Assembly: GCA_910586925.1 (NCBI GenBank)
Contig: CAJUKG010000010.1
Coordinates: 9,817-73,816 of the forward strand
DNA length: 64,000 nt
From: an uncultured Christensenellaceae bacterium
GTDB taxonomy: Bacteria; Bacillota; Clostridia; Christensenellales; Pumilibacteraceae
Reading direction: 5' to 3'
This document shows, in pieces, positions 20,089 to 51,708 of this stretch. A program made the translations under genes and the position numbers. Positions within the stretch are counted from its first letter, which is position 1; the number at the start of each line of letters is the position of its first letter. The notes under the pieces were generated by a model, which was given only the letters and a program-made list of their open reading frames with translations, was not told where the DNA came from and searched no databases.

Positions 20089-20101
20089 ACGTGAATTTCC
20101 A

Positions 20102-21070
20102 TTACTTGTTTTTTTGCGTTTCGGCAAGTCCCGTTATCGCGTCGAGCATGAAACGGTTTTGTTCTTCTTTCTCGAAAGTGCTCGACTGTTTTTCGTACGT
20201 GTTGTAATCCTGAAGATTGTGACCCATATTCACGTAGATCATATTGTATTTGTCGTTCGACCAAGCCACGGGACAGAAGTTGGTGCGGTCGTCGGGATCG
20301 GCTTTATTGTAATTCCAAGTTTCGCCCGGTTTATCGCCGACGGGATAGCCGGACTTGTCGATGGAAAGCAGTATCGTGATATCGGGATTTTCCCGCAAAT
20401 CGTTCTCCCAATTATACCATTCGTTATACGCCGACATGAACGTTTCGGGAAGGTTCTGCGTGGAATAATGAACGCTCGTTTCCACTTTCAGCATGTTCCG
20501 CGTGGGATTCCAAGTGTTCTTCCAAAAATTGCCGCTGCCGAGAAACTCGTTGTGATACCAATTCTGCCACTCGTCCATGTTGTCGTTCATAGAAAAAGCG
20601 CACACGTGAAACCCCATCCATGCCCCGCCGTTTTCCATATAGTTTCTGAACGCCGTCCTCGCACTCTGACTGCCCGGGATATTGTTTAGGAACATGACCA
20701 AATCGTATTTCGACAGATATTCTTCAGTCATGGCGTTCCAATCGCCGTTGAATTCGTAAAGAAATCCGAGCTGTTTGCCCTGTTCGGGGAACCATTTATT
20801 CGCATCTTTTGCGAAATCGTTATGCGCGGGATCGCCGCCGTTCAGATCGCCGAACGCCACTATCTTGAAATCTGCACAGTCGGCGCAAATGCCGCCTTCA
20901 TGCCCGACGTGCTCGCTCTCCGCGCCGCAAGCGCAAACGCGCCAATGCTCGGACTCGCTGCGTCCCCATCCGTCCCACAAATGTTTGTGTTGCGGACGGG
21001 CGCACGCCGCCAAAGACAGTGCCGTTACAGCCGAAAGAACGACGCTTGCAAACTTGACCGATTTTCTCAT
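20102..21070 (-). CDS. Lipoprotein, ThuA-like (class-I glutamine-amidotransferase-like fold), tentative
   Basis: Start at MRKSVKFASVVLSAVTALSLAAC (ATG 21070, GGAG RBS), a signal peptide with an L-A-A-C lipobox. A Cys/His-rich insert follows, then ...MFLNNIPG...GGAWMGFHVCAF.... The family assignment is from memory. Confidence 0.6.
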   Translation of the reverse strand: MRKSVKFASVVLSAVTALSLAACARPQHKHLWDGWGRSESEHWRVCACGAESEHVGHEGGICADCADFKIVAFGDLNGGDPAHNDFAKDANKWFPEQGKQLGFLYEFNGDWNAMTEEYLSKYDLVMFLNNIPGSQSARTAFRNYMENGGAWMGFHVCAFSMNDNMDEWQNWYHNEFLGSGNFWKNTWNPTRNMLKVETSVHYSTQNLPETFMSAYNEWYNWENDLRENPDITILLSIDKSGYPVGDKPGETWNYNKADPDDRTNFCPVAWSNDKYNMIYVNMGHNLQDYNTYEKQSSTFEKEEQNRFMLDAITGLAETQKNK

Positions 21071-21103
21071 ATTTCTTCTCCGTATTGCTTTTATCGTGAC
21101 GCT

Positions 21104-21132
21104 ATTATATCGCGCCCGTTTGCAAAAGTCAA
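21104..21132 (-). promoter_or_regulatory. Putative promoter of the ThuA-like gene
   Basis: Minus strand: TTGACT (21132..21127), 17 nt spacer, TATAAT (21109..21104). Confidence 0.5.
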
Positions 21133-21214
21133 TACGGCTGTCGAATTTGAACGTAAATCTATCGAAAACGAACATATCGCCATCAATTCTTAATTCTCCG
21201 TTTTTTCGATCAAT

Positions 21215-21412
21215 AAAAAAATCCCGCCTGTGCCGCAGACTTAACCTATTATCAACCCGCGTATAGCAGGTGGGTCGGCTGACGCGGTCGTCTGTCTTCC
21301 CCTGCTTACTTGCGTAAAATTACTGAGGCCCGACATATCATCGCGTACGCGCCATCCCTTTTGATGATTGAGGTTATAAATGAGGTATCGTCTCGTACAC
21401 CGCAGGATGTAC
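21215..21412 (-). ncRNA. Candidate ~200-nt small RNA with its own promoter and T-run; identity unknown (6S-like rod is a hypothesis only)
   Basis: Minus-strand promoter: TTGATT (21445..21440), 17 nt spacer, TATAAT (21422..21417). The 3' end reads ...GGCACAGGCGGGATTTTTTT (T-run 21221..21215). The 5' ATCCTGC can pair with the 3' GCGGGAT, and there are further complementary segments (GGGATGGC..ACGCG with CGCGT..GCCGACCC). There is no credible ORF, and the downstream gene has a separate promoter. Confidence 0.35.
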
Positions 21413-21551
21413 TTATATTATATACCGCAACGCCGTTAAAATCAATGGGTATGTGAAAATTTTTTTATAAATATTTTCGCCGAACCTATTGACAACACCG
21501 ATATTTTGTGATATGTAACGCGCCGCAGGCTTGCTGCGAACGCGCTTTCGG

Positions 21552-29759: not shown

Positions 29760-30617
29760 TTACAGTCTTACCGTGCCTCTGAACACTTCACACGCCTCGC
29801 CCGTCATATACACCGTTTCGTCGGTATAGCGGATTATGAGTTCGCCGCCCGGCAGTCGCACCGAAATATCGGTGTTCTTGTCGCACTTGCCGCCGAGCAC
29901 CGCCGCGACCGCCGCCGCACACGCGCCGCTGCCGCAAGCCATAGTTTCACCCGTGCCGCGTTCGTACACGCGGAGTTTGATATGCGTGCGGTCGATTATC
30001 TGCATGAATCCGACGTTGACGCCCTCGGGGAAAAGCGATTTATCCTCGCCGATGCATTTTCCTATTCCTTCGACGTCGCAGTTTTGCACGTCCGACACGA
30101 CGATCGTGCAGTGCGGATTGCCCATTGACGAACAGGTCACGGCGAACTTGCCTTTCGGCGTGTCTATCTCGCGCTCGACCACCGCGTCGCCGGGAAGATT
30201 TACGGGCACTGCGGCGGGGTCAAGCTCGGCTTTGCCCATATCCACTCTCACCGAATTGACTTTGCCGTCGCGGGCGAACAGCTTGAGCTTCTTCGCGCCC
30301 GACAGCGTATCGACTGTTATATCGAGCTTATCGGTCTTGCCGTTGTCGTACAGGTATTTGCCCACACAGCGAATACCGTTGCCGCACATTTTGCCTTCCG
30401 ACCCGTCGGAATTGAACATGCGCATCGTCGCGTCGCAGGTTTCGGACGGATAAATGAATATCACGCCGTCGCCGCCCACGCTGAAATGTCTGTCCGAAAG
30501 ATTGACCGCGACCGATTCCATATTCGTTATCGGTCTGTTCAAACAATCCACGTATATGTAGTCGTTGCCGCAACCGTGCATCTTGATAAAGTTGAGCCGC
30601 TGCCGCTCGGTGCGCAT
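29760..30617 (-). other. dapF: DapF (diaminopimelate epimerase) module inside the carB reading frame
   Basis: The internal Met at 30617..30615 is in the same frame as carB, and no SD precedes it. Both DapF catalytic Cys contexts (CGNG and ACGSGA) are present. Confidence 0.75.
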
Positions 30618-33600
30618 ATTGTTGATGTCCACAAGCTCGGTGTTGTACTGACTGTAACGGCTCTTGAGCGCGCGCGCGACTGCATTCGCCGTGTCTATTG
30701 CGGTAAGACACGGTATACCGCGCGCGACGGCACGGCAACGCAACCGCACGTCGTCGTGCGTAGGTATCCTGCCGCGCGTCGAGGTGGAAACGAGGTAGTC
30801 TATCTTGCCCGAATTGAGAAGGCTCATAGTGTTTTCGCCGGGGCACTCGTTGAGTTTGGCGGCGACCGTAACGTTCATACCCGACCGCCGAATAACTTCC
30901 GCCGTGCCCTCCGTCGCGTACAGCTCGAACCCGAGCTCGTAATAGTTTTTCGCGACGTTCGCAATCTCCGATTTATCGGTATCGCGCACGGTGAGAAGTA
31001 TGCCGCCGCGACGTTTCATTTTGTAGCCCGCCGCAACAAGCCCTTTGTATAACGCCTCGTCGAGAGTTTTGCCGACGCCGAGCACCTCGCCCGTCGATTT
31101 CATTTCGGGACCGAGGTGGGTGTCGAGGTCGGTGAGTTTCTCGAACGAGAAGATGGGGACTTTGACCGCGACGTACGGCGCGGACGGATAAAGTCCCGTG
31201 CCGTAACCGAGCTTTTTGAGCTTTTTGCCCACCATACACTCGGTGGCGAGCTTTATCATAGGCACGCCCGTCACTTTGGAAATGTACGGAATGGTGCGCG
31301 ACGAGCGCGGATTGACCTCTATGACGTAGATCTTGCCGTCGCTTATTATGTATTGGATATTGACAAGCCCTTTGGTATCGAGCGCGGTCGCGAGCTGTTT
31401 GGTGTACTCGATGATTTCTTCCTTGTTCTTGTCCGAAATGTTCTGCGACGGATACACCGCTATCGAGTCGCCGCTGTGAATTCCCGCGCGTTCGATATGC
31501 TCCATTATGCCGGGTATAAGTATATCCTCGCCGTCGCAGATAGCATCGACTTCTATCTCCGTACCCATTACGTACTTGTCGATGAGCACTACATTGTCGG
31601 GATTGCCGTCGAGAATAATGGACATGTATTCGCGCACGTCGTCGTCCGAGAACGCGATTATCATGTTCTGTCCGCCGAGAACGTACGACGGACGCAACAG
31701 CACGGGATAGCCGAGCGCGTTGCCCGCCGCGAGTGCCTGCTCCGTCGTCTTGACGGTGTGACCCTGCGGACGCGCAATGCCGAGTTTTTCGAGAAGCGCG
31801 TCGAACCTTTCGCGGTCCTCCGCCGCGTCTATCGAATCGGCGGGGGTGCCGAGTATGCGCACGCCCTTTTCGGAAAGATGCTTTGTCAGTTTTATAGCGG
31901 TCTGACCGCCGAACGCCACGACCACGCCGTACGGACGCTCGGTCGCAATGACGTTATCGACGTCCTCCTCGGTGAGCGGCTCGAAGTACAGTCTGTCCGC
32001 AGTGTCGAAATCGGTGGAAACCGTTTCGGGGTTGTTGTTTACGATCGCGACGTCGTAACCGAGAGCTTTAAGCTCCCACACGCAGTGCACCGACGCATAG
32101 TCGAATTCTATGCCCTGCCCGATACGGATAGGTCCCGACCCGAAAACTATCACCCGCTTCGCCTTACCCGCGCGCTCCTCGATAAACTCTTTCGCTTCGT
32201 TCTCGTCGTCGTAAGTCGAATAGAAATACGGCGTTTCCGCTTTGAACTCGGCGGCGCAGGTATCGACGGTTTTGAACACCGCGCGTTTATGCATAGGCAG
32301 TTTGTTCCCCGAAATCGCTTCGAGTGCCTTGTCGGGATAGCCGAGCTTCTTGCCCGTAATATACTCGGACTTGGTCATTTCGCGGTTTTCGATGCTGTTC
32401 TCGTAATCGACGAGGTTTTCGATCTTGTTCAAGAACCACGGGTCGATACGCGTGATCTTCGCGATTTTCTCGACGCCGAACCCGCGTCGCACCGCTTCGT
32501 ACAGTATGAAAAGCCGATAGTCGGTGGCGGGCATGAGCATGCTCTCGATCTGTTCGTCGGAAAGGCTCTCGTAATGCGGGTTTCTGAGCGTGTCCGCACC
32601 GAGCGCGCCGCGCACCGCTTTCAGCAATCCCGCCTCGAAACACGGCGCGATCGACATGACCTCGCCCGTCGCTTTCATCTGCGTGCCGAGCGTGCGCTTG
32701 GCGTACACGAATTTATCGAACGGCCATTTAGGAAGTTTGACTACGCAATAGTCGATCGCAGGCTCGAAGCATGCGCAGGTCTTACCCGTAACGGCGTTGG
32801 TTATTTCGTCAAGAGTGTAACCGAGCGCGATGAGAGTAGTCACTTTCGCTATCGGATACCCCGTCGCTTTGGACGCGAGCGCGGACGAGCGCGACACGCG
32901 CGGATTGACCTCGATAACCGCATAATCGTTGGAATCGGGGTCGAGCGCGAACTGCACGTTGCAACCGCCCTCTATCTTGAGATGAGTTATTATATTGAGC
33001 GCGGCGGTGCGCAGCATTTGGAAATCTTTGTCCGAAAGCGTCATTGTCGGCGCAACCACTATGCTGTCGCCCGTATGTATACCGACGGGATCGAGGTTTT
33101 CCATCGAACACACGGTAATGACGTTACCGAGCTTGTCGCGCATGACCTCGAACTCTATTTCTTTCCAACCGTAAATACTCTTTTCGATAAGTGCTTGATG
33201 GATCGGCGAAAGCTCGAGTCCTCCCCGCGCTATCTCGCGCAGTTCTTTCTCGTTCTCGGCAATGCCGCCGCCCGCGCCGCCCAGCGTGAATGCGGGGCGC
33301 ACTATCACGGGATAGCCTATCTTGTTCGCGAACTCGACCGCCGCGTCGACTTCGGTCACGACGTCCGACGGTATGCACGGCTGATCTATCTCGAGCATCG
33401 CTTCCTTGAACAGTTCGCGGTCCTCCGCTTTGTCTATCGTTTCGGGTCGCACGCCGAGAAGCCGCACGCCGTGCTCGGCTAAAAATCCAGATTTCGCAAG
33501 CTCCATCGAGAGAGTCAAACCCGTCTGTCCGCCAAGTCCCGGAAGAATTCCGTCCGGCTTTTCGCGAAGTATAATACGCTCGAGCGTGGGCACGGTGAGC

Positions 33601-33803
33601 GGCTCTATATAAATGGCGTCCGCCATCGCTTTATCGGTCATGATCGTCGCGGGATTGGAATTGACGAGCACGACTTCCACTTTCTTGCTCTTGAGCGTGC
33701 GGCAAGCCTGTGTGCCCGCATAATCGAATTCCGCCGCCTGACCTATCGTGATAGGTCCCGACCCGATTACGAGTACCTTTTTGATGCTTTTATCTTTAGG
33801 CAT
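29760..33803 (-). CDS. carB: Carbamoyl-phosphate synthase large subunit fused in frame to diaminopimelate epimerase (1347 aa)
   Basis: The first ~1062 aa are a complete CarB (two ATP-grasp halves, oligomerisation domain, MGS-like end ...CLTAIDTANAVARALKSRYSQYNTELVDINN). This continues without a stop into MRTERQRLNFIKMHGCGNDYIYVD...MFNSDGSEGKMCGNGIRC...MGNPHCTIVV...YERGTGETMACGSGACAAA... (DapF). Confidence 0.85.
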   Translation of the reverse strand: MPKDKSIKKVLVIGSGPITIGQAAEFDYAGTQACRTLKSKKVEVVLVNSNPATIMTDKAMADAIYIEPLTVPTLERIILREKPDGILPGLGGQTGLTLSMELAKSGFLAEHGVRLLGVRPETIDKAEDRELFKEAMLEIDQPCIPSDVVTEVDAAVEFANKIGYPVIVRPAFTLGGAGGGIAENEKELREIARGGLELSPIHQALIEKSIYGWKEIEFEVMRDKLGNVITVCSMENLDPVGIHTGDSIVVAPTMTLSDKDFQMLRTAALNIITHLKIEGGCNVQFALDPDSNDYAVIEVNPRVSRSSALASKATGYPIAKVTTLIALGYTLDEITNAVTGKTCACFEPAIDYCVVKLPKWPFDKFVYAKRTLGTQMKATGEVMSIAPCFEAGLLKAVRGALGADTLRNPHYESLSDEQIESMLMPATDYRLFILYEAVRRGFGVEKIAKITRIDPWFLNKIENLVDYENSIENREMTKSEYITGKKLGYPDKALEAISGNKLPMHKRAVFKTVDTCAAEFKAETPYFYSTYDDENEAKEFIEERAGKAKRVIVFGSGPIRIGQGIEFDYASVHCVWELKALGYDVAIVNNNPETVSTDFDTADRLYFEPLTEEDVDNVIATERPYGVVVAFGGQTAIKLTKHLSEKGVRILGTPADSIDAAEDRERFDALLEKLGIARPQGHTVKTTEQALAAGNALGYPVLLRPSYVLGGQNMIIAFSDDDVREYMSIILDGNPDNVVLIDKYVMGTEIEVDAICDGEDILIPGIMEHIERAGIHSGDSIAVYPSQNISDKNKEEIIEYTKQLATALDTKGLVNIQYIISDGKIYVIEVNPRSSRTIPYISKVTGVPMIKLATECMVGKKLKKLGYGTGLYPSAPYVAVKVPIFSFEKLTDLDTHLGPEMKSTGEVLGVGKTLDEALYKGLVAAGYKMKRRGGILLTVRDTDKSEIANVAKNYYELGFELYATEGTAEVIRRSGMNVTVAAKLNECPGENTMSLLNSGKIDYLVSTSTRGRIPTHDDVRLRCRAVARGIPCLTAIDTANAVARALKSRYSQYNTELVDINNMRTERQRLNFIKMHGCGNDYIYVDCLNRPITNMESVAVNLSDRHFSVGGDGVIFIYPSETCDATMRMFNSDGSEGKMCGNGIRCVGKYLYDNGKTDKLDITVDTLSGAKKLKLFARDGKVNSVRVDMGKAELDPAAVPVNLPGDAVVEREIDTPKGKFAVTCSSMGNPHCTIVVSDVQNCDVEGIGKCIGEDKSLFPEGVNVGFMQIIDRTHIKLRVYERGTGETMACGSGACAAAVAAVLGGKCDKNTDISVRLPGGELIIRYTDETVYMTGEACEVFRGTVRL

Positions 33804-40043: not shown

Positions 40044-40235
40044 TATTCCTCCCTAATTTTGAAAAAAGAGAAATGTACAGCCGTTACACTTCTCTTTAAG
40101 ATTATTGAACTTGGATTGTAAGTTTTCATCAACATTAAGTTTAACAAATTTTTCCCCGACTGTCAAGCATTTTATTCATGTTTTCGATCGAGCCGACCCG
40201 CGCGGGCGCACACGAAATAGCAACGATCAAATTGC

Positions 40236-40272
40236 ACAAAAAATCCCGCAGGATCGCTCTTGCGGGAAGTTT
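40236..40272 (-). terminator. Rho-independent terminator of the giant gene
   Basis: Minus strand: CCCGCA-agagcgatcc-TGCGGG followed by ATTTTTTGTG. It lies about 40 nt after the stop at 40306. Confidence 0.6.
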
Positions 40273-40305: not shown

Positions 40306-43300
40306 TCAGAACTCGTCGGGATTAAATCCGTCGGGGCTTGCGGGAGGCGGGTTGCCGCCGTTCGGAGCCGTCGGCTGTGCCGGCGGAACATTGCCCTGTT
40401 GCGGGGGCGGAGTGCTGCCCGATCCCGCGTTCAGCTGCAAGCTGTTCGGCGTGGGATTGTTCGCGCTTCCGCCGAGCATAAGCCCGGGATCGTTGACGGT
40501 CTGCTGCATAGGCGGCAGGTAGCCGAACGATTGATACGGTGCCGAGCCGCCGCTGCCGAGCCGCATCATTTCTTCTTCAAGCTCGATTTCGGCGTTGAGA
40601 AGCGACTCGATCTCTCTGCGCATCTTGCGCTTCTTGCATACGACAACGATTATGACGATGAGCAGTATGATGAACAGCAGTATCGCCGCGACTATGATCC
40701 AGAACCACATCCAGTTCGCTTCGATGAGCGAAATGGTGCTCTCGAACCAAGACTGTTCGGGCGCGTCGTGACACATGACCGTTATGGTCATATCGTACGA
40801 TCTGCCGGAGCTGTCGCTGACCTTGAGCGAAATGTCGGACGAACCGCGTCTGTTGAACTTGAGCAGTATGAACGCTCTGCCACCGTCGGCAGCCGTGTCG
40901 TAATCGAGCAATGCTTCCACTATTACCGACTGCGATGTGACGACAGGCGTGAGGAACGTCATTATGTCGTCTTTATCGGTATCTTCGAACCAATCCTCGG
41001 GATAGACCTTGAGCGTGCGATTCACGGGATCGGTAAGCATATTGACGGTATACTCGTAAACGGTTTTTTCGCCGCCCGCGTCCTTTTTGTATTTAGGCGG
41101 AGTATTGACGGATACCGTGATCGGCAAAATCCTCTTGACCGACACGCTGCCTGCCGCGAACTCCACTTCGAGTTTTACGGAAGCACCCTCGGTGCGGGCG
41201 TAAATGCGCCATTCGTCAATATCCGCGCCGCTTGCCGACGTCAACGCTTGCGTCGAACCGGGAGCGAAAACGGAAAGCTGCGGATTGCCGCCGTCGGTCA
41301 CTTCGGTGATCGACTTGATCGTATAGCCGCGCGCCTTATCGCCGAGCAGATCCTCGGTCGTGACGGTACGCGTAACGCCGTATGCGATGGAAATGGGTTC
41401 AAGCTCGTCGGCTACGTCTTCGAGCGGATCTGCGACCGTGATGTACAGGTTAAGCTCGAACACTTTGCCGTCCTGTATGCCCGCAGCCGAGCCGTCCTCG
41501 TAACCGCTGTCGACGATCGTGAGAGTCACCTTTTGGAAACCGTACAAGCCCGCGACCTGCGTTACGGTGAACAACTGATGCTGCGCGTTGTCGGCTTTCC
41601 AGTCGATATAGCACAGCGTGTCGGAAGTGTATTCGGTGTTGCCTTCCTCGTCGGTGTGCATGAGGTTGGGACCGTACATGATAGGCGCGTCCTCGCCTTC
41701 TTCGTGTCTGTCGTAAACGAGTATCGAGTCGATAAACGCGTAAGTAGGCGTGCGCTCCGCGTACTGCGGATCGTCGGCGCGGTAGTTATCGCCGTTGTCG
41801 TCCGCAATGAAGTCGAGAATACTGAAAGTCTTTACCGCATTGCCGACGTCCTCCTCGGTCGCGTCCTTGCCGAGACCCATGAGCGTGATATGCGTATCAA
41901 TGCCGGGCTTGAGCTTGGGCGCGATATTATCGACGGTCACGTTGATCGTGAGAATATCGGTAACGGCACCGCGCACCGAGTCGCGCAAACGCAGTTGGCA
42001 AGTTCCCACTTCGCCGCGCAGTGTGGACACGCACGTGAACATGATCTTGTCGAGCGTCGTGAGTCCGTACGCATTGCTCGTATCGCTTGTTTCGATATTG
42101 AACAGCGTGACGCCGTTGCCGTTCTTGAGTTTGCCGACTTTGCTGCTGTTGCCCATTTCGTCGACCGAACCCATAAGATTGCCGTCGCTCATTATAAGAC
42201 TCGTTTCGGTCGCGGTATTGAGCAACACGTACTTATCCATATCGACGTCGGCATCATTGATTATATCGGCGATGCGCACGTTGAGTTTGGACCCGCGCTC
42301 GACGGTGGCATTGAGGACATACCCGGTGTCGTCGGTGTACGTGAGCGAATAGCCGAGCCGCAGGATATCCGAAGAATCGGTTACCGTCTTGAGTTCGGGA
42401 ATATCGTTCTCGACACGAACGGTGATCGTGGTTTTGACAAGGTTCTTGTTGTTGGAAATACCCGAGCGCACGCCGATGGTATCCGCGCAGTATATATCCA
42501 CGCTGACGTCGGTATACGATACTTCGTTGCCGTTCGGATCGGGATTGCCCGTAAACACCTTGCGGTTGATCTTAATGGTGATCGACTTGCCGTCGCCCGA
42601 CGGAGTGACCGACAGAACGTCGCCCTTGCCTTTTACGGTTTCGTTTATGCCGCGGAATTCCGCACGGACATAGTTGATCGACTCCAAACCGCCGCTCGTG
42701 CTCGGATTGCGAATGAGGTCGTAATCGTAGAACAAGCCGAGTTCGGAATCCTGCGTGTCGTACAAATTCCAAGTGAGCGAGTCGCCCGCCGTACCCGTAA
42801 ACCGCAGGAACGACGATTCGCGGAGGCGCATTTCGCCTTCTTCGCCGGACGGAACTCTCGGATAGCCGGAGTTGAACGGCGATTCGGCGACCGCGACGAG
42901 CGCGGAGTTGGCAACCGACACGTTTGCAAACGCCGTCTTCATATCCATGGGACGGTCATTCTCGTCTCTGTAATCTTTTACAAGCTCGATATAGAGTTGT
43001 ATGTTCGCAAGCGCGGCATTGTTTTTCTCGGGCGAAATAGTAGCCGAGTTGGGAATGAATTCCAAAGTCTTGCCGTCTGCGGACAGCGACACCGAGAAGA
43101 AGCGCGAAACGTATGTCGCGACCTCGCCGTATCCGGGTTGAATAGACGAACCCTCGACGGAAACGAGCAGGCACGAATCGCGATCGAAATCGTCGCTTGT
43201 GTGACGGATCGGCTCGAAGTTATTCTCGCCGCGTTTGACAAGAAGCGCGTAGACATTGACGTCGTACTTCGCCGACGGCGCAGCGACATCGGAGTCGGAG

Positions 43301-46300
43301 AAAAGTTTCGCGTCGCTTCCCGCCGCAACGAGATCTATCGTAACGGGCTGACCGTCCTTGACATACTCGGCATAGCTCTTAAGCTCGAGCGACAAATCGC
43401 GGTCTTGCGTCGCTATCGTTCTTACCTCGCGAGGTTTGATCTTAACGCGAATGGTTATGAACTCGGACACTGCGCCGTGCATATCCGCTACGCGGAAAGT
43501 GACCGACGAGTACAAGCCCGCGCGGTTCATGTAATCGGTAGCCTTTATAACTATCGAAGTTACGGACTGTTCGGTTTTGCTCTCTACCGATATAGCCGAA
43601 ACGCCTTGCGGGTTGTTGATAGTAAAGCTCGTATTGTCTACGCCCTTGTACACGGACAGATGATATTCGTCGTCGCGGTCCACGTCGGTCATAAAGCCGT
43701 AATCGCCGCCGAGGTCGAATTCCTTCGTTTCGTCGTAATCGAGAGCTATTTCGTAGGTATTGGGAATGACGTTGTGGCTGTCGTCGTACGCCACTTCAAG
43801 CCCCGCGGGAAGATTATTGAGCTTCGCGGTAGGCGCGGTGGACACGACCGAAATATTGATATTGATTTCGACTTTAACGCCCAAACCGTCCTGCAACGTG
43901 ACTGTATACACCGTATTTACAACAGCTTTCGCGGTGACGGTGACGCTCATGGGTCTGCCGACGCTGCCGTCCTCGCAAAGATACATGGCACCCGTCGAAT
44001 ACGAGAACAGATCCACGTGGTTGATATCGGAGAACGTTTTGTAGTCGACGATACGCAACGTACTCGCCGCGTCGTCGCTGCCGATTATAAGCCCGCCGAG
44101 ATGTTTGCTCGCGCTGCTCTCTCCCGAAGAATCGTAGAGAAATGCGGTCGCGAGTTCCGCGGCATTCTTGTCGGGACGCTCGTGCGGCGTGCCGTTGACG
44201 TAATTGTAAACATAGCCGCTGTTGCCCTTCCACGAATTGAATCCGCCGCGCACGTCGCTGTCGAACTTACTGTGGTCTGCCGCGTACAGCGTGAAGCTGT
44301 CGCCCGTGCGCATGACGATGCTGATGGATTCGGATCCGCCGAAAGTATCGCTATTCGCAGTCGGAGCTTCGTTGTTGTACGAAACGGTAAACACTACGGA
44401 CATCGTATTGTCCCGCACACTGTCGGAGAACGTATACATTACGCTGACGGGATTCTTGAACGCGGAGTCAGCCGAGAACATTATCGTGGATTCCGACATG
44501 CCCGAATCCTCGGGAGCGGATCCTATAGTGATCGGCAATTCGCCCGTCGGGTCGATCTTTCTGAACGACGTCGGCATTACGAGGTAATCGCGGGTATACT
44601 TCTCCTCGTCCGTGAAGTTCGCATCGGATACCGAGAACGACGAGCCGTCGAGCTTGATGTCGTTATCGAGCAGCAACGACGATACGTCGATAAAGAAGTC
44701 CGCGCCGCGCGACAGCTTGAACTTGTATTCGGGCACATACGTACCGCCGACGTTTATCGTGTTGATGACGCCTTTATCGTTTTGGAACATTTTGGGGTTG
44801 ATACGAAGCTCGTCGTTGCGTATATACACTTTGAGCACCGTAACGAACCAGAACCCTTCCGTCAACGACGAGCCGTTGACCTCGTCGAAGAACAGGACGC
44901 GGAACGGATAATAAATACCGTTCTTGTCTTCTTTCAGATGATACTCGGCAAGAATGTCCTCGCGCTGTTGAGTAGTAGTGCCCTCGGGGAAAGACAGCTG
45001 CGTCTTGGCTTTGGGAGTAAACTGAATGGAGGACGATCTGCCGTCCTTGGGCGAAACGTCGAAGAACTTGTCGTAACCGGGGTTCGGCACGTACTGTTCT
45101 TTGTACTTATCCATAGAGATCGTTTCGCCGTCTACTTCCACGGTTTCGCCGTAAGATACGTCGTAGTACATCTTGAACGCCGCAGATTTCTGACCGCCGG
45201 AATTGGAATCAATGGTAATATAATCGCGTTCGTCCTTCGACATACCGCCTACTACGTTGCCTTTATCGTCTACGGTAGCCGTGGCGGACGACATGAGGAA
45301 CTTCATGACGTCGCCTTTATCGGCGTCGTCGTATGTGATATAGCAGTCGCCTGTCGGCGTGGGAACGAGGTTGCCGTTATCGTCCTCGACGGGGTTGCCG
45401 TCGCGAAGCACGAGCGTCTTGCCCTGCGTGTCGCTCGTCGTCATGGACAATCTCATCGTATCGGTACCGCTGTCTATCGGCGTTACTACTTCGGTCTCGT
45501 CGACATACTTGAGCGACGGAGCCGCATTCTTGAGAATGATATCCACCTCGGCGTATTCCACGGCACTGCCGATAAGCTGATTGTCGTTGAATGCCGTCGT
45601 TTTGAGCGCGACGGTGAGTTTGAGACGATTGCGCGCGCGCTCGCCGCCCGGTTTTTTCTCGAACGTAAGACCGTATTTATCCTCGCGGTAAATACTCTTG
45701 CCGTTGACGATACTCGTGATCGGGTTGCGGTTAAGACGGGTAGAATCGTCGGAAGTGCTGATCGTGTAACGTTTGTCGTTGAGATACTTGGTCTTATCGC
45801 TCGCGACATAGCTGCCCGTATTCGCTTTGTATCCGATGGTGATATACGGGTTATTATTGAGCGTCGCGCCCGACCAGGTATTGCCGTCTATATCCGAAAG
45901 CGTGAGGTTTTCGAACACGTAACCGAGAGTTTGGGGATTATTGCCCCAGGTAGAGTACATGGAGTCGGAAAGCACGAGGTTGTTCTTGGGATCGAGCGGA
46001 CCCGCCGTCGCGTTCGCGAACGTGACGTGCTCAACGCTCTGACTGTCCGTCGAGGTCGACGCGCGTTTCGGCATAGCGATATAACTAATAGGCACTTCGG
46101 TAACGCCGCCGCCTATGCCCGCAGCTTCTATCTCGATCGGACGGTAATAGAACGCGTTCGACGCGTCGGGATAGCACTTGTAAGTTACCTCTACTTTTTC
46201 CTTTCCTGCGACCGTGCGGGAAATGGTTTTAACGAAATACTGATACTTAAAGTCATCGGCGAACGTAGCCGATTGCAACGTAGTCTGATTTGTAGGGATG

Positions 46301-49300
46301 TCGCCCTCGAACTGATAATTTTTGTCGGTGGCGAAACCGTTATAATCGACGGCGTAAAAAGTATTGCCATTGTCGTCGGTCTTGATCGCGGTGTTGGCTT
46401 CCAGATTACCGTCGGTGCGATAATAAGTATGCATAACGGTAATACCGGGAGATTTGTATTCGTAATCGAAGTTGAGCACCAACGATGCGGACTTACCTGT
46501 CGATTTCACAGTCTTGTCGGCATTGTATACGGGGACGTCATGGTGATTGTCTTTTATGGATATCGCGATCGTGGCGGGACCGTACTGCTCCTCGCTGTTT
46601 CCGCTGTCTACGATCTCGATAGCCCAAAACTGCGTCGTCTTGACGCGTTCGTCGGCGGCTCCGAGTTCGGTAAATACCACATTGCCGTGTTCGTCCGTTT
46701 CGCGCACATAGAATATCACTCGCAAGCTCAAGTGCGTGTTGCCGCTGTTGTCGTTCACGTATGTGGGCGTGTACAAAATCGCGGCGTTCGGATAGCTCGC
46801 AAACATTGCATCGGTCGGTTTTTCGCCAACGGGCTTCACGAGCGCGGCGACCGCGCCGTTTATATTATCGCTCCACTTCAAGGGATTGAGCATTGCGTTC
46901 TCTCTGCCGTCCGTATCGGAGAACAGATACTGTATGTTCGACGCACCTGCGGCTTTAGGATTGGCGTTGTACAATTCTTCGCTGTTGTAGATATACCGCG
47001 CGACGCGAAGCTCGGCTTCATCCTCGTAACCTATCTGCCACGCATAAACGTCGTTCTCGGTATCTTTAAGCGTGAGCGAGTCTGTGACGAAAACAGGTTG
47101 CGCGTTATTCACGTGAATAAGCACGTGCAAATTATCCCATTTCGGTTGCGCGCGGAATCCGTCCTGCACGCCTACCTCGAGGTAAATGGGCACCGAGAAA
47201 ATTTCCGTGGACGAAAGTGCGGTCACCTGCACGACGTCCTCGCCGTATTCGTTCTTGGTGAACTGCGCGTGCGCATACTCGGAGAGAATGTATTTGCCGT
47301 CCGCCGCGCCGACGAATTTTCCGGTGGCTTCGTTATAATCGAGCCGATCGTAATACTCGTCGCCGATCTTGGCTACTATTCTCGCACTGCCCGCGATAAA
47401 CGTCGGGATGTCGCCGTCCTTGTCGTACGCGATCTCGCGCGTCGTGAACATATACGAGTTGCGGACTTTGGTGCCGAGTTCGGTAGTCATGATGTACGGC
47501 TCGACAATGCGCTTATCTTCCTCGTTCTCTTTGGGATGGTTTTTCTCGGTGTTGAGCATAGGCGCGGAGTTGTTGACGACTATCGTAACGAGGCAATCGG
47601 TGCTCGAGAAACCGTCCGTCACGGTGAAGCGCAACTGCACGACCGCCGAAGTGGTACGCGATACGCCGACGATCTTGATGCACGGCACCATGTATTCCGC
47701 ACCGCCCGCGACAACGCACTTATTTTCCGCCGTAGCGGCGATATAACCTGCGTACTGCTCTGCGTTCGCTCTGAAATTGTCGAGATTGGTGAACGAAAGG
47801 TTCTGCAGCTTCACGCCCGTCGCCTCGGTTGCGGGTGCGGACGGCGAAGCAGTATGCGGGATATTGTATTGGTGATTGAGGAACTGAGCAACGCTCGGGA
47901 ATTCCTCGTCGACGGGGTTGGTATTGTACTTGATCGAGCCTGCGTTCATGGCGTTCAAAACGGTATTATCGCAGTCGACGTCGAAATCGTACACCAAATC
48001 GTACGGCGTGATCTGAAGCACGTCGTTGCGCTCTATGTAATAGTTGACAGCCACGGCGTTGATGCTCGGGTTGTACATGAACACGTTTTTGGTGTCGTTG
48101 CTTTTCCTGTTCGCGTTCGCCAAATTGATTTTGTAATCGAACGTCGCGGAGTCGTCGCCCATGCCCTGATACGAACTGCGACGGGCTTGCACCGCACGGT
48201 TGTCGACTTTTATGCACACGCGCACCGTGTTCTTGGCGTCGTGCGAGTCTTTTACCTTGACGTCGAATTGGAAGTATTCCCCGTTCGTCGAACGCTTGGG
48301 CGTGATCTTAAGACCGTAGAACGCGTAGCAGTCGCCGTGTTCGCGCACGCCGAAAGACTCGAGCTGAGTCTTATTCATCGAAAGCCGAGAGAATACCGTT
48401 TTGCTCGCGTACAGCTCGATGCGTTCTACCGTGTAGAATGCCGCGGTGTCGTAAGCATTTATGATATTGTCGATGCTCGTACCGTCGAGCATGACTATAT
48501 CGTTGAGAGCGCGGGTCTTGTCGTTGCCCTCGCCCGAATATATGAACGTATCGGGGTCTATCGTAAACGGCAAAGCGTGGTCCGCGTCTTTATCCGAAGT
48601 ATATTTGTTAAGCGCGTCGTCGGGGCTGCCGATACCTCGCACAACGCCGTCGCTTCCGACATAGCTCACGGGCGTGAGAACGATGCTGCGGCGGGGCTCG
48701 TTTTGCCGCGCGTCGCTGCCGACGCCGTCGTTGGTGACGGGTGCGCCGGGAACGAACGTGTCGTTAAAGTCGAGAGTGAAGTTCGCAACCGTAGGCGTTT
48801 CGGCGGGTTTTGCCGAAGTTACGCGAATGGCTATAGGGAACCAAATGCCGTCGTCGCTCACGTCGGACGGGTCTATGACGCGCACCATAATGTAGAAGTC
48901 GCCGAGCCGTCCCGACTGACCGTACATATACTGCGTCGATGCGCGCGGGGTGAACCTGATCACTTTGTTGCTGTCGAAACTGTACGTAACGGCGGCATTC
49001 GCGGCACCCGAGCTACCCGTCGCGGCGATCAGATCTTTCTTGAATCCCGTCGCGGTTATACCCTCGCCCGACTTGGAAGAAATGTTCTCGCCCGTATCTT
49101 GAACGGACGTTCTGTTATAGTAGTTACTCGGAGTGTTGCCGATCTTGTCGCGAAGCGGCACTTCGATATTGGACGCGTCCACCTGAATATATTCGTTGGT
49201 GGGGATCTTAACGTCGCCCGCGAAGTACGCGTTAAGCGAATTGCCGTCGTCCAAATCCTTGATCATGGTCGAAATATCGAGCGTCACGGACGCGCCGCCC

Positions 49301-51378
49301 GATTCAAGCTCGATATACGGTTCCGCCATGCCTTCGACCATGGTGGACGAAGCGAAGTACGGACGGGTGTTCGCCAAGCGGAACACGAGCTGTACCGCCG
49401 AGTTCTGCGAGCCTATGACCGCTTTTGTGTTGGTTTCGCTCGTCTGCGCATATATCGTCGCACAAACGTAAACCGCGCCGTTGGGTCTGATGTTAGTCGG
49501 TTTAATCGTTATCGAAGGCGCAACGCCCGACGCATAATCAGAACTCGTGTTGTACGAAATACTGTAATATTGCGAATATTGCGAATACGCGGAAAGCGGG
49601 GTTATCGTGCGGAACCCGACTTTATCGTAATTCGTATCGAGATCGTCGAAAATGTCTTTCGCGTAAATGGTATACCCCGCCGTATCGGTAGGTGCGATAG
49701 GCTTGGGAAGGAATACCGTTTTTATATGCGAACCGTCGGTGTAATTGGGATTGTAAATACTGCCGGGCGTACCCATATAGTTGCCGCCGACATTATTGGA
49801 AGTAGCATCGCCGTAACGGTATTCGTAAGATTTACCGCCCGAAGAATATGTGTGCGTCGAGGCATCCGCCTTCGGCGTGATCGCCCTGTCGTTGACTACG
49901 AGATAGAAAAGTATCGTACTCGTACCGCGCGTCGCCGTAGCACCGAAATCATCGCGCATTTTTACGTAAAGCGGAAGTTTGCCGTTTGTCGAGGCATAAC
50001 CGTCGCCCGCACGCGGGTATTTTTTGATCTCCGTTATGCGAAGCGTGGACTTACTCTGCCAATTCCAGCTTAAATATGAACTCGCGGAAACAGTGCAACC
50101 CGAATTGAGCCACAAGCCCGCATTCGCGCTCGGCAAGGCGTCGAAATTGCCGCTCGTGCCATTGGAATAGAATACGTTATTGGTGTTGCCGCCCGAAATA
50201 TTGGTGTAATCGGGGTCGTATGCGATCGTACTCGCCGCTATGTCTATATTGCGCGACGTGCCGCGATAGTAGTTCGCGGACGAGGCGTTCTGAATTGTCG
50301 TGCCGCCGTTTCTCGCCGTCGGACCTTGGTTGACCGAAACGACCTGAATTGTCGCCTTACCGTTGCCCGATTGGGTACCGTTACTGCCACCGCCAGAAAG
50401 TCCCGATTTGATGTGACCGGAACCGCCGCCGCCGCCCGTTCTGCCGTCCGCACCCGAGCCGTTGGAGTCGCCGCCGCCACCGCCGCCGCCGTACCAGCCG
50501 CCACCGCCGCCGCCGCCTGCTTCGTAACCGCCCGAGTAGCTGGCACCGCCGTGACCGAAATAGCCGGCTTGACCTGTAACAGGACGACAGTCGGAAGCAC
50601 TTGCGCCTCTGCCTGCGCTACCGCCTTGGTTTGATTTGCCGCCGCTTGCCTGATATCCGCCGCCTGTAATATAACCGCCCGACGACGAGCCGCCGTTATT
50701 GTTCGCGCCGCCGCCGTAACCGCCCTGACCGTAAGAACCGCCATGCGCGTTTGTGGTAGAACCGCCGCCGCCGCCCGCAACGACAAGCACTTTCGCTTGG
50801 TTTGTCGTAGAGCTCAAAGCATCGAGAGTGCCCTGCGCAAGAGCCATATGCGTCGCGCCGCCGCCGCCGCCGCCGCCGTTTGCACGGTCGACACTGCCGC
50901 CGCCGTTATAGCCGCCGCTTTTTGCGCCGCTCGAACCCGACGCTCCTTGCCCGCCGACATATATGTATATATACTCGCCCGAAGTGGAAGTGACGTTATA
51001 TGTGGCATAGGTATAACCGCCTTTGCCGCCGAGACAGGAATTCACATAATACCCGCCCTGTGCGCCCCAGACTTGAAGCGTATACTGACCGCGCGGCAGT
51101 TTAATTTGGTAATAGCCGCTCGTCTTAAACGAATAGTTTATAACGTCGCCGTTCTTCAGCGCACCCGGTGCAGTTTGGTCGTTCTGAAGATTGGAGTACG
51201 TCGTACTCGTCAAAGCGTCGCCACCGCCTACTTCGTCGCGGTCGACGATCGGCGATTCGACGTTGATGCACAACGCACACACGATCGCCACCGCTATCGC
51301 GGTGAAGATCGAGGCGACAAGCACTATCACCCGTCGCAAGATATTCGTATTACCGGTTCCGTTCGTATGATTTTTCAT
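40306..51378 (-). CDS. Giant surface protein (3690 aa): N-terminal TM/signal anchor, ALK/LTK-like glycine-rich domain, many cadherin-like/Ig-like modules, C-terminal TM, Pro-rich cytoplasmic tail
   Basis: GAGGTGA RBS and ATG at 51378. N-terminal hydrophobic stretch: ILRRVIVLVASIFTAIAVAIVCALCINV. The glycine-rich domain covers aa ~78-350. At least 13 acidic loops of the cadherin/dystroglycan-type occur (YDPDYTN, DDLDTNYD, DLDDGNSL, IDPDTF, YDFDVDCDN, YDKDGDIPTF, FSDTDGRE, YDDADKGDVM, LDNDIKLDG, TDVDRDDEY, INDADVDMD, ADDNGDNY, FEDTDKDDIMTF). The C-terminal hydrophobic stretch WMWFWIIVAAILLFIILLIVIIVVVC is followed by KKRKMRRE and then 100 further residues. Confidence 0.9.
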   Translation of the reverse strand: MKNHTNGTGNTNILRRVIVLVASIFTAIAVAIVCALCINVESPIVDRDEVGGGDALTSTTYSNLQNDQTAPGALKNGDVINYSFKTSGYYQIKLPRGQYTLQVWGAQGGYYVNSCLGGKGGYTYATYNVTSTSGEYIYIYVGGQGASGSSGAKSGGYNGGGSVDRANGGGGGGGATHMALAQGTLDALSSTTNQAKVLVVAGGGGGSTTNAHGGSYGQGGYGGGANNNGGSSSGGYITGGGYQASGGKSNQGGSAGRGASASDCRPVTGQAGYFGHGGASYSGGYEAGGGGGGGWYGGGGGGGDSNGSGADGRTGGGGGSGHIKSGLSGGGSNGTQSGNGKATIQVVSVNQGPTARNGGTTIQNASSANYYRGTSRNIDIAASTIAYDPDYTNISGGNTNNVFYSNGTSGNFDALPSANAGLWLNSGCTVSASSYLSWNWQSKSTLRITEIKKYPRAGDGYASTNGKLPLYVKMRDDFGATATRGTSTILFYLVVNDRAITPKADASTHTYSSGGKSYEYRYGDATSNNVGGNYMGTPGSIYNPNYTDGSHIKTVFLPKPIAPTDTAGYTIYAKDIFDDLDTNYDKVGFRTITPLSAYSQYSQYYSISYNTSSDYASGVAPSITIKPTNIRPNGAVYVCATIYAQTSETNTKAVIGSQNSAVQLVFRLANTRPYFASSTMVEGMAEPYIELESGGASVTLDISTMIKDLDDGNSLNAYFAGDVKIPTNEYIQVDASNIEVPLRDKIGNTPSNYYNRTSVQDTGENISSKSGEGITATGFKKDLIAATGSSGAANAAVTYSFDSNKVIRFTPRASTQYMYGQSGRLGDFYIMVRVIDPSDVSDDGIWFPIAIRVTSAKPAETPTVANFTLDFNDTFVPGAPVTNDGVGSDARQNEPRRSIVLTPVSYVGSDGVVRGIGSPDDALNKYTSDKDADHALPFTIDPDTFIYSGEGNDKTRALNDIVMLDGTSIDNIINAYDTAAFYTVERIELYASKTVFSRLSMNKTQLESFGVREHGDCYAFYGLKITPKRSTNGEYFQFDVKVKDSHDAKNTVRVCIKVDNRAVQARRSSYQGMGDDSATFDYKINLANANRKSNDTKNVFMYNPSINAVAVNYYIERNDVLQITPYDLVYDFDVDCDNTVLNAMNAGSIKYNTNPVDEEFPSVAQFLNHQYNIPHTASPSAPATEATGVKLQNLSFTNLDNFRANAEQYAGYIAATAENKCVVAGGAEYMVPCIKIVGVSRTTSAVVQLRFTVTDGFSSTDCLVTIVVNNSAPMLNTEKNHPKENEEDKRIVEPYIMTTELGTKVRNSYMFTTREIAYDKDGDIPTFIAGSARIVAKIGDEYYDRLDYNEATGKFVGAADGKYILSEYAHAQFTKNEYGEDVVQVTALSSTEIFSVPIYLEVGVQDGFRAQPKWDNLHVLIHVNNAQPVFVTDSLTLKDTENDVYAWQIGYEDEAELRVARYIYNSEELYNANPKAAGASNIQYLFSDTDGRENAMLNPLKWSDNINGAVAALVKPVGEKPTDAMFASYPNAAILYTPTYVNDNSGNTHLSLRVIFYVRETDEHGNVVFTELGAADERVKTTQFWAIEIVDSGNSEEQYGPATIAISIKDNHHDVPVYNADKTVKSTGKSASLVLNFDYEYKSPGITVMHTYYRTDGNLEANTAIKTDDNGNTFYAVDYNGFATDKNYQFEGDIPTNQTTLQSATFADDFKYQYFVKTISRTVAGKEKVEVTYKCYPDASNAFYYRPIEIEAAGIGGGVTEVPISYIAMPKRASTSTDSQSVEHVTFANATAGPLDPKNNLVLSDSMYSTWGNNPQTLGYVFENLTLSDIDGNTWSGATLNNNPYITIGYKANTGSYVASDKTKYLNDKRYTISTSDDSTRLNRNPITSIVNGKSIYREDKYGLTFEKKPGGERARNRLKLTVALKTTAFNDNQLIGSAVEYAEVDIILKNAAPSLKYVDETEVVTPIDSGTDTMRLSMTTSDTQGKTLVLRDGNPVEDDNGNLVPTPTGDCYITYDDADKGDVMKFLMSSATATVDDKGNVVGGMSKDERDYITIDSNSGGQKSAAFKMYYDVSYGETVEVDGETISMDKYKEQYVPNPGYDKFFDVSPKDGRSSSIQFTPKAKTQLSFPEGTTTQQREDILAEYHLKEDKNGIYYPFRVLFFDEVNGSSLTEGFWFVTVLKVYIRNDELRINPKMFQNDKGVINTINVGGTYVPEYKFKLSRGADFFIDVSSLLLDNDIKLDGSSFSVSDANFTDEEKYTRDYLVMPTSFRKIDPTGELPITIGSAPEDSGMSESTIMFSADSAFKNPVSVMYTFSDSVRDNTMSVVFTVSYNNEAPTANSDTFGGSESISIVMRTGDSFTLYAADHSKFDSDVRGGFNSWKGNSGYVYNYVNGTPHERPDKNAAELATAFLYDSSGESSASKHLGGLIIGSDDAASTLRIVDYKTFSDINHVDLFSYSTGAMYLCEDGSVGRPMSVTVTAKAVVNTVYTVTLQDGLGVKVEININISVVSTAPTAKLNNLPAGLEVAYDDSHNVIPNTYEIALDYDETKEFDLGGDYGFMTDVDRDDEYHLSVYKGVDNTSFTINNPQGVSAISVESKTEQSVTSIVIKATDYMNRAGLYSSVTFRVADMHGAVSEFITIRVKIKPREVRTIATQDRDLSLELKSYAEYVKDGQPVTIDLVAAGSDAKLFSDSDVAAPSAKYDVNVYALLVKRGENNFEPIRHTSDDFDRDSCLLVSVEGSSIQPGYGEVATYVSRFFSVSLSADGKTLEFIPNSATISPEKNNAALANIQLYIELVKDYRDENDRPMDMKTAFANVSVANSALVAVAESPFNSGYPRVPSGEEGEMRLRESSFLRFTGTAGDSLTWNLYDTQDSELGLFYDYDLIRNPSTSGGLESINYVRAEFRGINETVKGKGDVLSVTPSGDGKSITIKINRKVFTGNPDPNGNEVSYTDVSVDIYCADTIGVRSGISNNKNLVKTTITVRVENDIPELKTVTDSSDILRLGYSLTYTDDTGYVLNATVERGSKLNVRIADIINDADVDMDKYVLLNTATETSLIMSDGNLMGSVDEMGNSSKVGKLKNGNGVTLFNIETSDTSNAYGLTTLDKIMFTCVSTLRGEVGTCQLRLRDSVRGAVTDILTINVTVDNIAPKLKPGIDTHITLMGLGKDATEEDVGNAVKTFSILDFIADDNGDNYRADDPQYAERTPTYAFIDSILVYDRHEEGEDAPIMYGPNLMHTDEEGNTEYTSDTLCYIDWKADNAQHQLFTVTQVAGLYGFQKVTLTIVDSGYEDGSAAGIQDGKVFELNLYITVADPLEDVADELEPISIAYGVTRTVTTEDLLGDKARGYTIKSITEVTDGGNPQLSVFAPGSTQALTSASGADIDEWRIYARTEGASVKLEVEFAAGSVSVKRILPITVSVNTPPKYKKDAGGEKTVYEYTVNMLTDPVNRTLKVYPEDWFEDTDKDDIMTFLTPVVTSQSVIVEALLDYDTAADGGRAFILLKFNRRGSSDISLKVSDSSGRSYDMTITVMCHDAPEQSWFESTISLIEANWMWFWIIVAAILLFIILLIVIIVVVCKKRKMRREIESLLNAEIELEEEMMRLGSGGSAPYQSFGYLPPMQQTVNDPGLMLGGSANNPTPNSLQLNAGSGSTPPPQQGNVPPAQPTAPNGGNPPPASPDGFNPDEF

Positions 51379-51403
51379 ACTTCACCTCGTAAAAACAGTC
51401 GTT

Positions 51404-51472
51404 TGTTAACAATTTGTTCACATTTACGTGTGTATACAGGATAATGTTAACATATTGTTCATATTTTGTCAA
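51404..51472 (-). promoter_or_regulatory. Putative promoter and repeated GAACAAwwTGTTAACA element of the giant gene
   Basis: Minus strand: TTGACA (51472..51467), 17 nt spacer, TAACAT (51449..51444). The 16-nt direct repeat is GAACAATATGTTAACA (51460..51445) and GAACAAATTGTTAACA (51419..51404); the second contains the palindrome TTGTTAACAA. Confidence 0.35.
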
Positions 51473-51623: not shown

Positions 51624-51708
51624 GCGGGGGTGGCGAAATTGGCAGACGCGCAGGTCTCAGAAGCCTGTGGGTAACACCGTACGAGTTCAAGTCTCGTCCT
51701 CCGCACCA
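51624..51708 (+). tRNA. tRNA-Leu (anticodon CAG), CCA encoded
   Basis: Hand-folded. The acceptor stem is GCGGGGG/CCTCCGC (one G-T pair). The D stem is GCG/CGC with a GG loop. The anticodon stem is CAGGT/GCCTG with loop CT-CAG-AA. There is a long variable arm (class II). The T arm is ACGAG-TTCAAGT-CTCGT, followed by discriminator A and CCA. Confidence 0.9.

Follow-up and report, generated by a model that had tools for sequence, protein, structure and literature searches.

The locus examined here raises a simple question: what is the product of a single gene of 11 kb, and what might it do for the gut bacterium that carries it? This gene (hereafter the giant gene, its product being the giant protein) lies on the minus strand of the window, by which we mean the whole stretch of 64,000 nucleotides that was analyzed, from contig CAJUKG010000010.1 of an uncultured Christensenellaceae bacterium assigned to the Pumilibacteraceae (assembly GCA_910586925.1). 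A first-pass annotation, made from the sequence alone, had described the product as a receptor-like surface protein with an unusual topology. It was found that the giant protein belongs to a family that is real and conserved and that has as yet no name. The members are of the fibrillar-adhesin kind; their stalk is uncatalogued, their head is of ALK type, and their cytoplasmic tail is conserved to an unusual degree. The reading that we favor, with a probability of about 0.6, is that it is a Sec-exported, membrane-anchored, fibrillar adhesin-like surface fiber of ~400 kDa, the tail of which docks a cytoplasmic partner.

Layout of the giant protein

Hydropathy analysis of the giant protein gave only two hydrophobic segments, at amino acids (aa) 16 to 38 and 3557 to 3581. 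As listed in Table 1, the layout consists of the N-terminal hydrophobic segment, a head that matches the Pfam family PF12810, ~3200 aa of all-beta modules, a transmembrane helix, and a cytoplasmic tail of 109 aa. This agrees with the type-I-like order read in the first-pass annotation, namely an N-terminal hydrophobic anchor, a huge ectodomain, and one transmembrane helix followed by KKRKMRRE and a 109-aa tail. The same annotation had reported the absence of the common anchoring and secretion signals, and our motif and profile searches were likewise negative. We found no LP.T[GASN] or NP.TN motif of the LPXTG kind anywhere in the protein and no Gram_pos_anchor match in Pfam. No NCBIfam model of an exosortase, archaeosortase, or rhombosortase sorting signal matched at E ≤ 1, and the transmembrane helix is 109 aa from the end. 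Neither Pfam nor NCBIfam gave a match to repeats-in-toxin (RTX) sequences or to a C-terminal signal of a type I secretion system (T1SS). S-layer-homology (SLH) and choline-binding models gave no match in Pfam and NCBIfam searches with the whole protein or in Pfam searches with 400-aa pieces. Searches of PDB sequences with the whole protein and with the transmembrane-plus-tail region returned nothing meaningful.

The PF12810 (ALK_LTK_GRD) match is the sole Pfam domain of the giant protein; it covers aa 90 to 325 with a score of 66.5 bits, compared to a cut-off of 24.5 (E 4.8e-18), and the domain was found in 13 of 13 relatives scanned, with a best E of 5.7e-29. An AlphaFold2 (AF2) model of aa 1 to 1200 was built with 20 homologues and had a mean predicted local distance difference test (pLDDT) value of 76. 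When the head of this model was compared with ALK/LTK structures in Foldseek (7nx0, 7mzy, 7n00, 7lrz, and 7nx1), the probability was 1.00 at 18 to 22% identity, and the target-normalized template modeling score (TM-score) was 0.37 to 0.45 over these five entries, with 0.41 to 0.45 for the ALK/LTK glycine-rich domain (GRD) structures. Both the sequence profile and the predicted fold make the head a homologue of the ALK/LTK ligand-binding domain. The glycine-rich domain of the first-pass annotation is thus present; its homology to ALK/LTK, which is the sole real link of this protein to eukaryotic receptors, had been missed.

The giant protein and ALK/LTK share the same Pfam model, well above the cut-off, and a head fold that superposes, but the giant protein has no kinase, EGF, MAM, or LDLa domain. 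A tyrosine kinase domain was not matched, and the cytoplasmic part consists of 109 aa that form a helix and then a disordered tail. As far as we know, ALKAL-type ligands are not to be expected in bacteria. Elsewhere in bacteria, PF12810 is found mostly in small proteins of 250 to 500 aa, some of which are fused to prepilin signals or to immunoglobulin (Ig)-like repeats, and these contexts point to an extracellular role. The presence of the ALK/LTK ligand-binding fold at the N terminus of a bacterial surface protein opens the binding partners of this fold to study in a tractable bacterial system.

The stalk follows the head. A family alignment of 38 sequences was cut into ~19 modules at the motif V.V.N.(A)P, so the module boundaries are motif-based and approximate. 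Many of the modules end in this motif, and many have conserved DxD or DxDxD loops. The ~3200 aa of the stalk had no Pfam or NCBIfam match when the whole protein was searched, and no Pfam match when ten overlapping 400-aa pieces or 13 relatives were searched. The cadherin, Cadherin_4/5, He_PIG, CADG-type, and bacterial Ig-like Pfam profiles were all without a significant match over the same sequences; the best Cadherin_4 score on the 400-aa pieces had an E of 0.36. At the level of the plain sequence, no internal repeats were returned by self-BLAST, and phmmer comparisons of fragment against fragment were marginal only. The module profiles recognize each other in hhalign, with a probability of up to 96% and an E of ~1e-8 over more than 100 aligned columns, and both AF2 models are beta-rich, with mean pLDDT values of 76 to 78. 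Therefore, the repeated beta-sandwich modules of the first-pass annotation hold as an all-beta prediction with related profiles but not as repeats of the plain sequence.

Foldseek comparisons of the stalk returned N- and E-cadherin, desmocollin, protocadherins, and an RTX-adhesin extender domain (6xi1), and equally hydin, NUP210, contactin, neurofascin, and the S-layer proteins SbsB, Sap, and EA1. Ectodomains of cadherins and protocadherins ranked at or near the top, those of N- and E-cadherin being the top fold matches of the N-terminal model, with TM-scores that are low for multi-domain chains. On these models, the stalk modules are predicted to be Ig- or cadherin-like beta-sandwich folds. 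Each module profile was also compared in hhalign with the E-cadherin repeats EC1 and EC2, and the probability did not exceed 13%, which is no signal. Homology of the stalk modules to cadherins is not supported by these negative Pfam and hhalign results. Accordingly, the cadherin- or dystroglycan-type identity proposed in the first-pass annotation is retained as far as the fold matches and the conserved acidic loops go, whereas the profile comparisons give it no support and Ig arrays score alike.

The acidic loops themselves were counted as D-x-[DN]-x-[DN] sites, of which there are 13 without overlap, in keeping with the "at least 13" counted earlier, and 16 when overlaps are included. Shuffled sequences gave 6.2 +/- 2.6 such sites, and 0.1% of the shuffles reached 16. 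About 7 of the sites are invariant or nearly so among the 38 homologues, and the positions D2565/D2567, D2885/D2887, D3042/D3044, D3193/N3195, D1131, and D3466 are invariant in all 38 aligned sequences. By analogy, binding of Ca2+ at the acidic loops of the stalk is a reasonable inference. Long arrays of predicted beta-sandwich modules and conserved Asp-rich loops liken the giant protein to the cadherins, and the V.V.N.AP that ends the modules recalls the cadherin sequence V.V.D.NDN.P; however, the modules are larger (107 to 227 aa), and the linker reads V.V.N.AP without a strict DxNDN. With RTX adhesins (6xi1), the likeness is in the fold of the extender domain alone; the giant protein has neither RTX repeats nor a T1SS signal.

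All full-length relatives have the C-terminal transmembrane helix, at a distance of ~64 to 208 aa from the end. In the giant protein it is followed directly by KKRKMRRE, and 109 aa are left after the helix. The AF2 model has one continuous helix from aa 3556 to 3603, which includes the transmembrane and juxtamembrane parts, and then a disordered tail. The segment from aa 3582 to 3610 is the most conserved of the protein, with a mean column conservation of 0.72 compared to 0.36 for the ectodomain; E3591 and E3597 are invariant, and many other positions are nearly so. The head has a mean value of 0.44 across the same 38-sequence alignment, and the N-terminal segment has a mean value of 0.49. Further along the tail, the short motifs YQSFGYLPP, DPGLMLG, and the C-terminal DGFNPDEF are conserved, with endings of the DGF-P-D-F or DDDL type in relatives. 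The conservation of the cytoplasmic segment argues for a conserved intracellular binding partner. That a cytoplasmic segment is better conserved than every extracellular part is unusual for bacterial adhesins.

Three weak matches of the HMMER search described below (P0093, P0094, and P0095) are unrelated, smaller surface proteins that have the same kind of end, consisting of a transmembrane helix, a basic cluster, a Glu/Arg-rich helix, and a Gln/Pro-rich tail. From this end layout, other surface proteins may also be anchored in a type-I-like manner and have a tail in the cytoplasm.

Family, hosts, and variation among strains

An exhaustive HMMER search with the last 1200 aa against 1.84 billion representative proteins gave 95 matches, nearly all of which are 3000 to 5500 aa long and match at their C terminus; no other kind of adhesin was present among the 95. 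A word-index search with aa 2401 to 3600 returned one fragment only. The giant protein is collinear with 37 homologues over its whole length, and the full-length members share its layout and align collinearly at 24 to 61% identity. Both the head and the transmembrane/tail region were present in 90 of the 105 members of at least 3400 aa, nearly all of the others being fragments cut at contig ends, and three members have two heads in tandem.

The hosts, as seen in species-representative genomes, are Anaerocaecibacter muris, Pumilibacter muris, P. intestinalis, and many gut metagenome-assembled genomes (MAGs). The MAGs are labeled Christensenella, Christensenellaceae, or Clostridia, and two loci are in a MAG labeled Roseburia. 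The named isolates that have family members belong to the Pumilibacteraceae (GTDB family CAG-552). Among the relatives that could be placed, the family is restricted to Pumilibacteraceae gut bacteria. These are prevalent but barely studied bacteria of the mouse gut, and the cultured members are very small, slow-growing, oxygen-sensitive, and grow on agar only, with few carbohydrate-active enzymes (bioRxiv 10.1101/2022.03.07.483007).

A genome usually has about three old paralogues; several genomes have three copies, and one MAG has at least six. They fall into at least three synteny groups, all of them among housekeeping genes. The locus of the type found in the window lies between a flavin reductase gene and pgm-glnA, and the other groups lie beside GroEL and RNase J genes or beside XerC and Trk genes (names read from the translations). 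Where the source databases name a family member, the name is "hypothetical protein", and literature searches on bacterial PF12810 proteins and on surface proteins of Pumilibacteraceae found no description of the family. The ~33 kb that most of the genomes spend on three giant genes suggests that surface attachment is central to the life of the Pumilibacteraceae.

Variation among close relatives was concentrated at the N terminus. Among near-identical strains, 10 of the 21 variable sites are in the first 293 aa. In a JGI variant (P0107), 110 of the 120 differences from the protein of the window lie within the first ~283 aa, which comprise the signal and the head; this variant is 94 aa shorter, and its stalk, transmembrane helix, and tail are almost identical to those of the giant protein. 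This pattern is that of a head cassette swapped by recombination, as judged from the aligned sequences. Two A. muris paralogues (L003 ~7044 and L061 ~7968) have a stretch of 293 nucleotides, from -123 to +170 around the ATG, at 98.3% identity; elsewhere the proteins of the same pair are ~37% identical. This indicates gene conversion of the promoter and the signal-peptide region. A hypervariable head that undergoes recombination, as these comparisons suggest, would be expected of an exposed, ligand-binding tip.

Proposed function and competing readings

As a Sec-exported surface fiber, the giant protein would work as follows. The N-terminal segment would direct the chain to Sec and would then probably be removed. 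The single C-terminal transmembrane helix would hold the fiber in the cytoplasmic membrane, with the basic cluster fixing the C terminus inside. The ~19 modules would form a stalk on the order of 80 to 100 nm, a length estimated from typical module lengths, and Ca2+ at the conserved Asp loops would stiffen it, as in cadherins and in the extender domains of RTX adhesins. With a stalk of this kind, the glycine-rich head could reach across the cell wall and past it, and the head would bind an external ligand, which might be host mucus, the epithelium, or other microbes. The invariant acidic helix and the tail motifs would dock a cytoplasmic partner that positions or retains the fiber or couples it mechanically to the cell. 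The three old paralogues per genome, together with head-swapping recombination, would diversify the binding specificity.

There are precedents for such a protein. In a survey of fibrillar adhesin-like proteins (Monzon and Bateman, PMC8286594), the anchor was not known for about half, and of these one-fifth had transmembrane helices. Fibrillar adhesins and the giant protein have in common that the head is N-terminal, that beta-sandwich domains in tandem make up the stalk, and that the anchor is C-terminal; however, the stalk and the head of the latter are outside the catalogued families, and it adds a long, conserved cytoplasmic tail. The stalk of tandem repeated domains by which fibrillar adhesins are recognized is represented here by ~19 related modules, none of which is in a listed stalk family. 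Since neither the stalk nor the head is in a catalogued family, profile-based screens would miss the giant protein. The family illustrates an adhesin-like "dark matter" that escapes such screens, with 3200 aa of stalk for which there is no Pfam model.

The Ebh protein of Staphylococcus aureus is likewise giant; it has a signal peptide, is anchored in the membrane at its C terminus, and lacks LPXTG (PMC4856396, PMC5031765). Ebh and Embp of staphylococci share with the giant protein the N-terminal secretion signal, the very long ectodomain, the C-terminal membrane anchor, and the absence of LPXTG, but there is no shared sequence, the beta-sandwich modules are not Ebh repeats, and the head is of ALK type; the giant protein is an analogue and not a homologue. 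With respect to the Ebh/Embp repeats, no Pfam repeat family was found, and the HMMER search with the last 1200 aa gave only the Pumilibacteraceae-type family. Given Ebh, and given that head, stalk, and anchor is the ordinary order of Gram-positive adhesins, the suggestion in the first-pass annotation that the topology is more eukaryotic than Gram-positive is overstated. As to its description as receptor-like, the unusually conserved tail does fit a link to the cytoplasm.

Several points weigh against the surface-fiber reading. The N-terminal segment is long (~22 residues), in this paralogue group it lacks an evident AxA site, and its conservation exceeds what is usual for signal peptides. The motif A.A(V/L)..TCAL in this segment is kept across paralogues and genera. 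With a long segment, no clear AxA, and the conserved TCAL motif, the N-terminal segment may therefore remain as a second anchor and stay in the membrane, which would place the head beside the membrane. The fate of this segment, cleaved or kept, is the main uncertainty of the surface-fiber reading. In addition, no linked partner or secretion gene was found: the three synteny groups share no neighbor, and none has a dedicated one. Furthermore, to our knowledge PF12810 is not an established adhesive domain; indirectly, an adhesive role of the head would fit its N-terminal position, its variability among strains, and the fusion of PF12810 to prepilin signals in other bacteria. A lipoprotein reading of the TCAL(C) motif was rejected by the general lipobox rules, which were applied directly rather than through a predictor, because position -1 is T or L and not A, G, or S.

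The surface-fiber reading leaves room for a stronger version, which we hold tentatively and consider rather unlikely, that the protein is a bacterial transmembrane adhesion receptor in which the juxtamembrane helix and the tail motifs dock a conserved machine in the cytoplasm, for instance a cytoskeletal, divisome, or secretion component. If this were true, head binding or tension in the stalk would be coupled to intracellular events, as with integrins and cadherins, and the cell could set where and when its fibers are displayed. Such a capability would be essential to these gut bacteria, which are very small and grow slowly, in an attached or epibiotic way of life.

The most serious rival makes the giant protein an envelope scaffold or "ruler" that is anchored at both ends, with the N-terminal helix kept, the two membrane helices together, and the chain looping through the wall; its job would be structural (cell size, or organization of the wall or septum), as is reported for Ebh, and not adhesion. 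The long N-terminal segment with its conserved TCAL and no clear AxA in this group speaks for a scaffold, and so do an N-terminal segment more conserved than the ectodomain, a highly conserved tail, stable synteny among housekeeping genes, and host cells that are unusually small. Loss of Ebh, moreover, alters cell size (PMC5031765). We nevertheless judge this scaffold unlikely: strain variation and recombination focus on the head, unlike what would be seen in a buried structural element, Pumilibacter-type members carry classical AxA signal-peptide sites, and the order of head, stalk, and anchor is typical of adhesins (PMC8286594).

The homology of the head to the ALK/LTK ligand-binding domain, together with the conserved cytoplasmic helix and motifs, could also be taken to mean a signaling receptor. 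A soluble or surface ligand would then be bound by the ALK-like head, and a cytoplasmic effector would be recruited by the conserved tail, which would relay the signal inward. This is improbable, because the 109-aa tail has no enzymatic or known signaling domain, a single transmembrane helix with 3200 aa of stalk between it and the head would be a poor transducer, and none of the synteny groups has a linked kinase or regulator gene. Quite improbable as well is a cell coat similar to an S-layer, made up of many copies that would protect or sieve and not of fibers for specific adhesion. The fold matches do include the S-layer proteins SbsB, Sap, and EA1, and there are several paralogues per genome, but the arrays matched are of a generic Ig-like kind and the TM-scores are low, neither an SLH nor any other wall-binding module is present, and a transmembrane anchor with a conserved cytoplasmic tail is not a feature of S-layers. 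Cultured type strains exist, and therefore the predictions made from the surface-fiber reading are directly testable.

The giant gene and the rest of the window

The coordinates of the gene, of its expression signals, and of the parts of the protein are collected in Table 1.

Table 1. Coordinates in the window of the giant gene, its candidate expression signals, the parts of the encoded protein, and the adjacent tRNA gene.
Feature	Coordinates	Strand	Basis and remarks
Giant coding sequence	40306..51378	(-)	ATG start, 3690 codons + stop, giving 3690 aa
N-terminal hydrophobic segment, aa 16-38, after RR	51265..51333	(-)	Hydropathy; putative export signal
Head, TNF-like plus glycine-rich (TG/GRD) domain, aa 60-353	50320..51201	(-)	Pfam, AF2, Foldseek
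Stalk, ~19 divergent all-beta modules of 107-227 aa, aa 354-3545	40744..50319	(-)	Profiles, AF2, Foldseek
Transmembrane helix, aa 3557-3581	40636..40710	(-)	Hydropathy peak 3.92
Basic stop-transfer cluster and acidic cytoplasmic helix, aa 3582-3610 (KKRKMRREIESLLNAEIELEEEMMRL)	40549..40635	(-)	Alignment
Pro/Gly/Asn-rich tail, aa 3611-3690, predicted disordered	40309..40548	(-)	AF2 pLDDT ~30
Promoter-like TTGACA-17-TAACAT with TG extension	51472..51444	(-)	Consensus scan, 10/12 matches, and read directly; candidate
Shine-Dalgarno sequence GAGGTG	51383..51388	(-)	Four bases 5' of the ATG; read directly
Terminator-like hairpin TCCCGCA...TGCGGGA, then TTTTTTGTG	40267..40235	(-)	Read directly and by scan
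tRNA-Leu(CAG)	51624..51708	(+)	Divergent from the giant gene

The first-pass annotation had given the gene its own promoter-like region, a strong ribosome-binding site (RBS), its own terminator, and a tRNA gene on the other side, and all of these were found in place. The promoter-like site follows the sigma-70-like consensus with a 17-nucleotide spacer. The terminator-like hairpin lies 38 nucleotides past the stop codon and has 7 exact pairs, or 10 with G-T allowed in the scan; the terminator scan lists the same hairpin, there on the plus strand. The downstream gene pgm (phosphoglucomutase) has a promoter-like site and an RBS of its own. Since expression signals of this kind flank the giant gene on both sides and pgm has separate ones, the giant gene looks monocistronic. 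An Rfam scan of the locus gave the tRNA only. The G+C content and codon use of the giant gene agree with those of its neighbors, and therefore it appears native to its genome.

An artefact, whether a chimeric assembly, a pseudogene, or an open reading frame (ORF) kept open by composition, is excluded: an ORF of 3224 codons that lies opposite and in register does indicate that composition can hold long frames open in this genome, but it is accounted for by genome-wide avoidance of the codons TTA, CTA, and TCA, and its product is R/V-rich nonsense, whereas independent assemblies encode the sense protein in identical form, Pfam gives it a significant domain match and AF2 a confident fold, and dozens of intact homologues align with it collinearly at 24 to 61% identity. 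Chimerism and frameshifts, which the first-pass annotation had named as the events that would undo its description, are ruled out by the identical 3690-aa product, which is encoded on ~10 contigs of independent assemblies, including two NCBI MAGs (GCA_948860465.1 and GCA_948814075.1). Full-length strain variants of 3688 to 3690 aa are also present in NCBI and ENA assemblies.

The antisense ORF (40399..50073, plus strand) was rejected as a gene, on account of its register with the sense codons and its nonsense product. Avoidance of these codons is nearly total across the genome; the giant gene contains three TTA, CTA, and TCA codons in 3690, and similar mirror ORFs were seen opposite pgm, glnA, and a CoA-activase gene. 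Mirror ORFs that arise from codon avoidance are a trap for gene callers. The GC skew of the plus strand is positive over the giant gene (+0.02 to +0.05) and negative over neighbors on the same strand; this is probably due to the Ser/Thr/Asp/Asn/Tyr-rich composition of the giant protein, with codons that end in C.

Elsewhere in the window, the gene at 26917..29637 (minus strand) encodes a 906-aa protein with TPR repeats, a TIR domain, and BspA-type leucine-rich repeats (LRR_5 and LRR_8). It lies in a stretch with a G+C content of 0.44 to 0.48, compared to ~0.55, and it has 17 TTA codons, a usage that sets it apart from all of the other genes examined; on this composition, it was probably acquired horizontally. 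The ORF at 29760..33803 (minus strand) encodes a carbamoyl-phosphate synthase large subunit of 1347 aa with a C-terminal diaminopimelate epimerase domain (aa 1072 to 1193 and beyond), which is either an unusual fusion or the result of a missed stop between carB and dapF. Two more dips in G+C content were found, at 12001..14000 (0.47) and at 20001..22000 (0.49).

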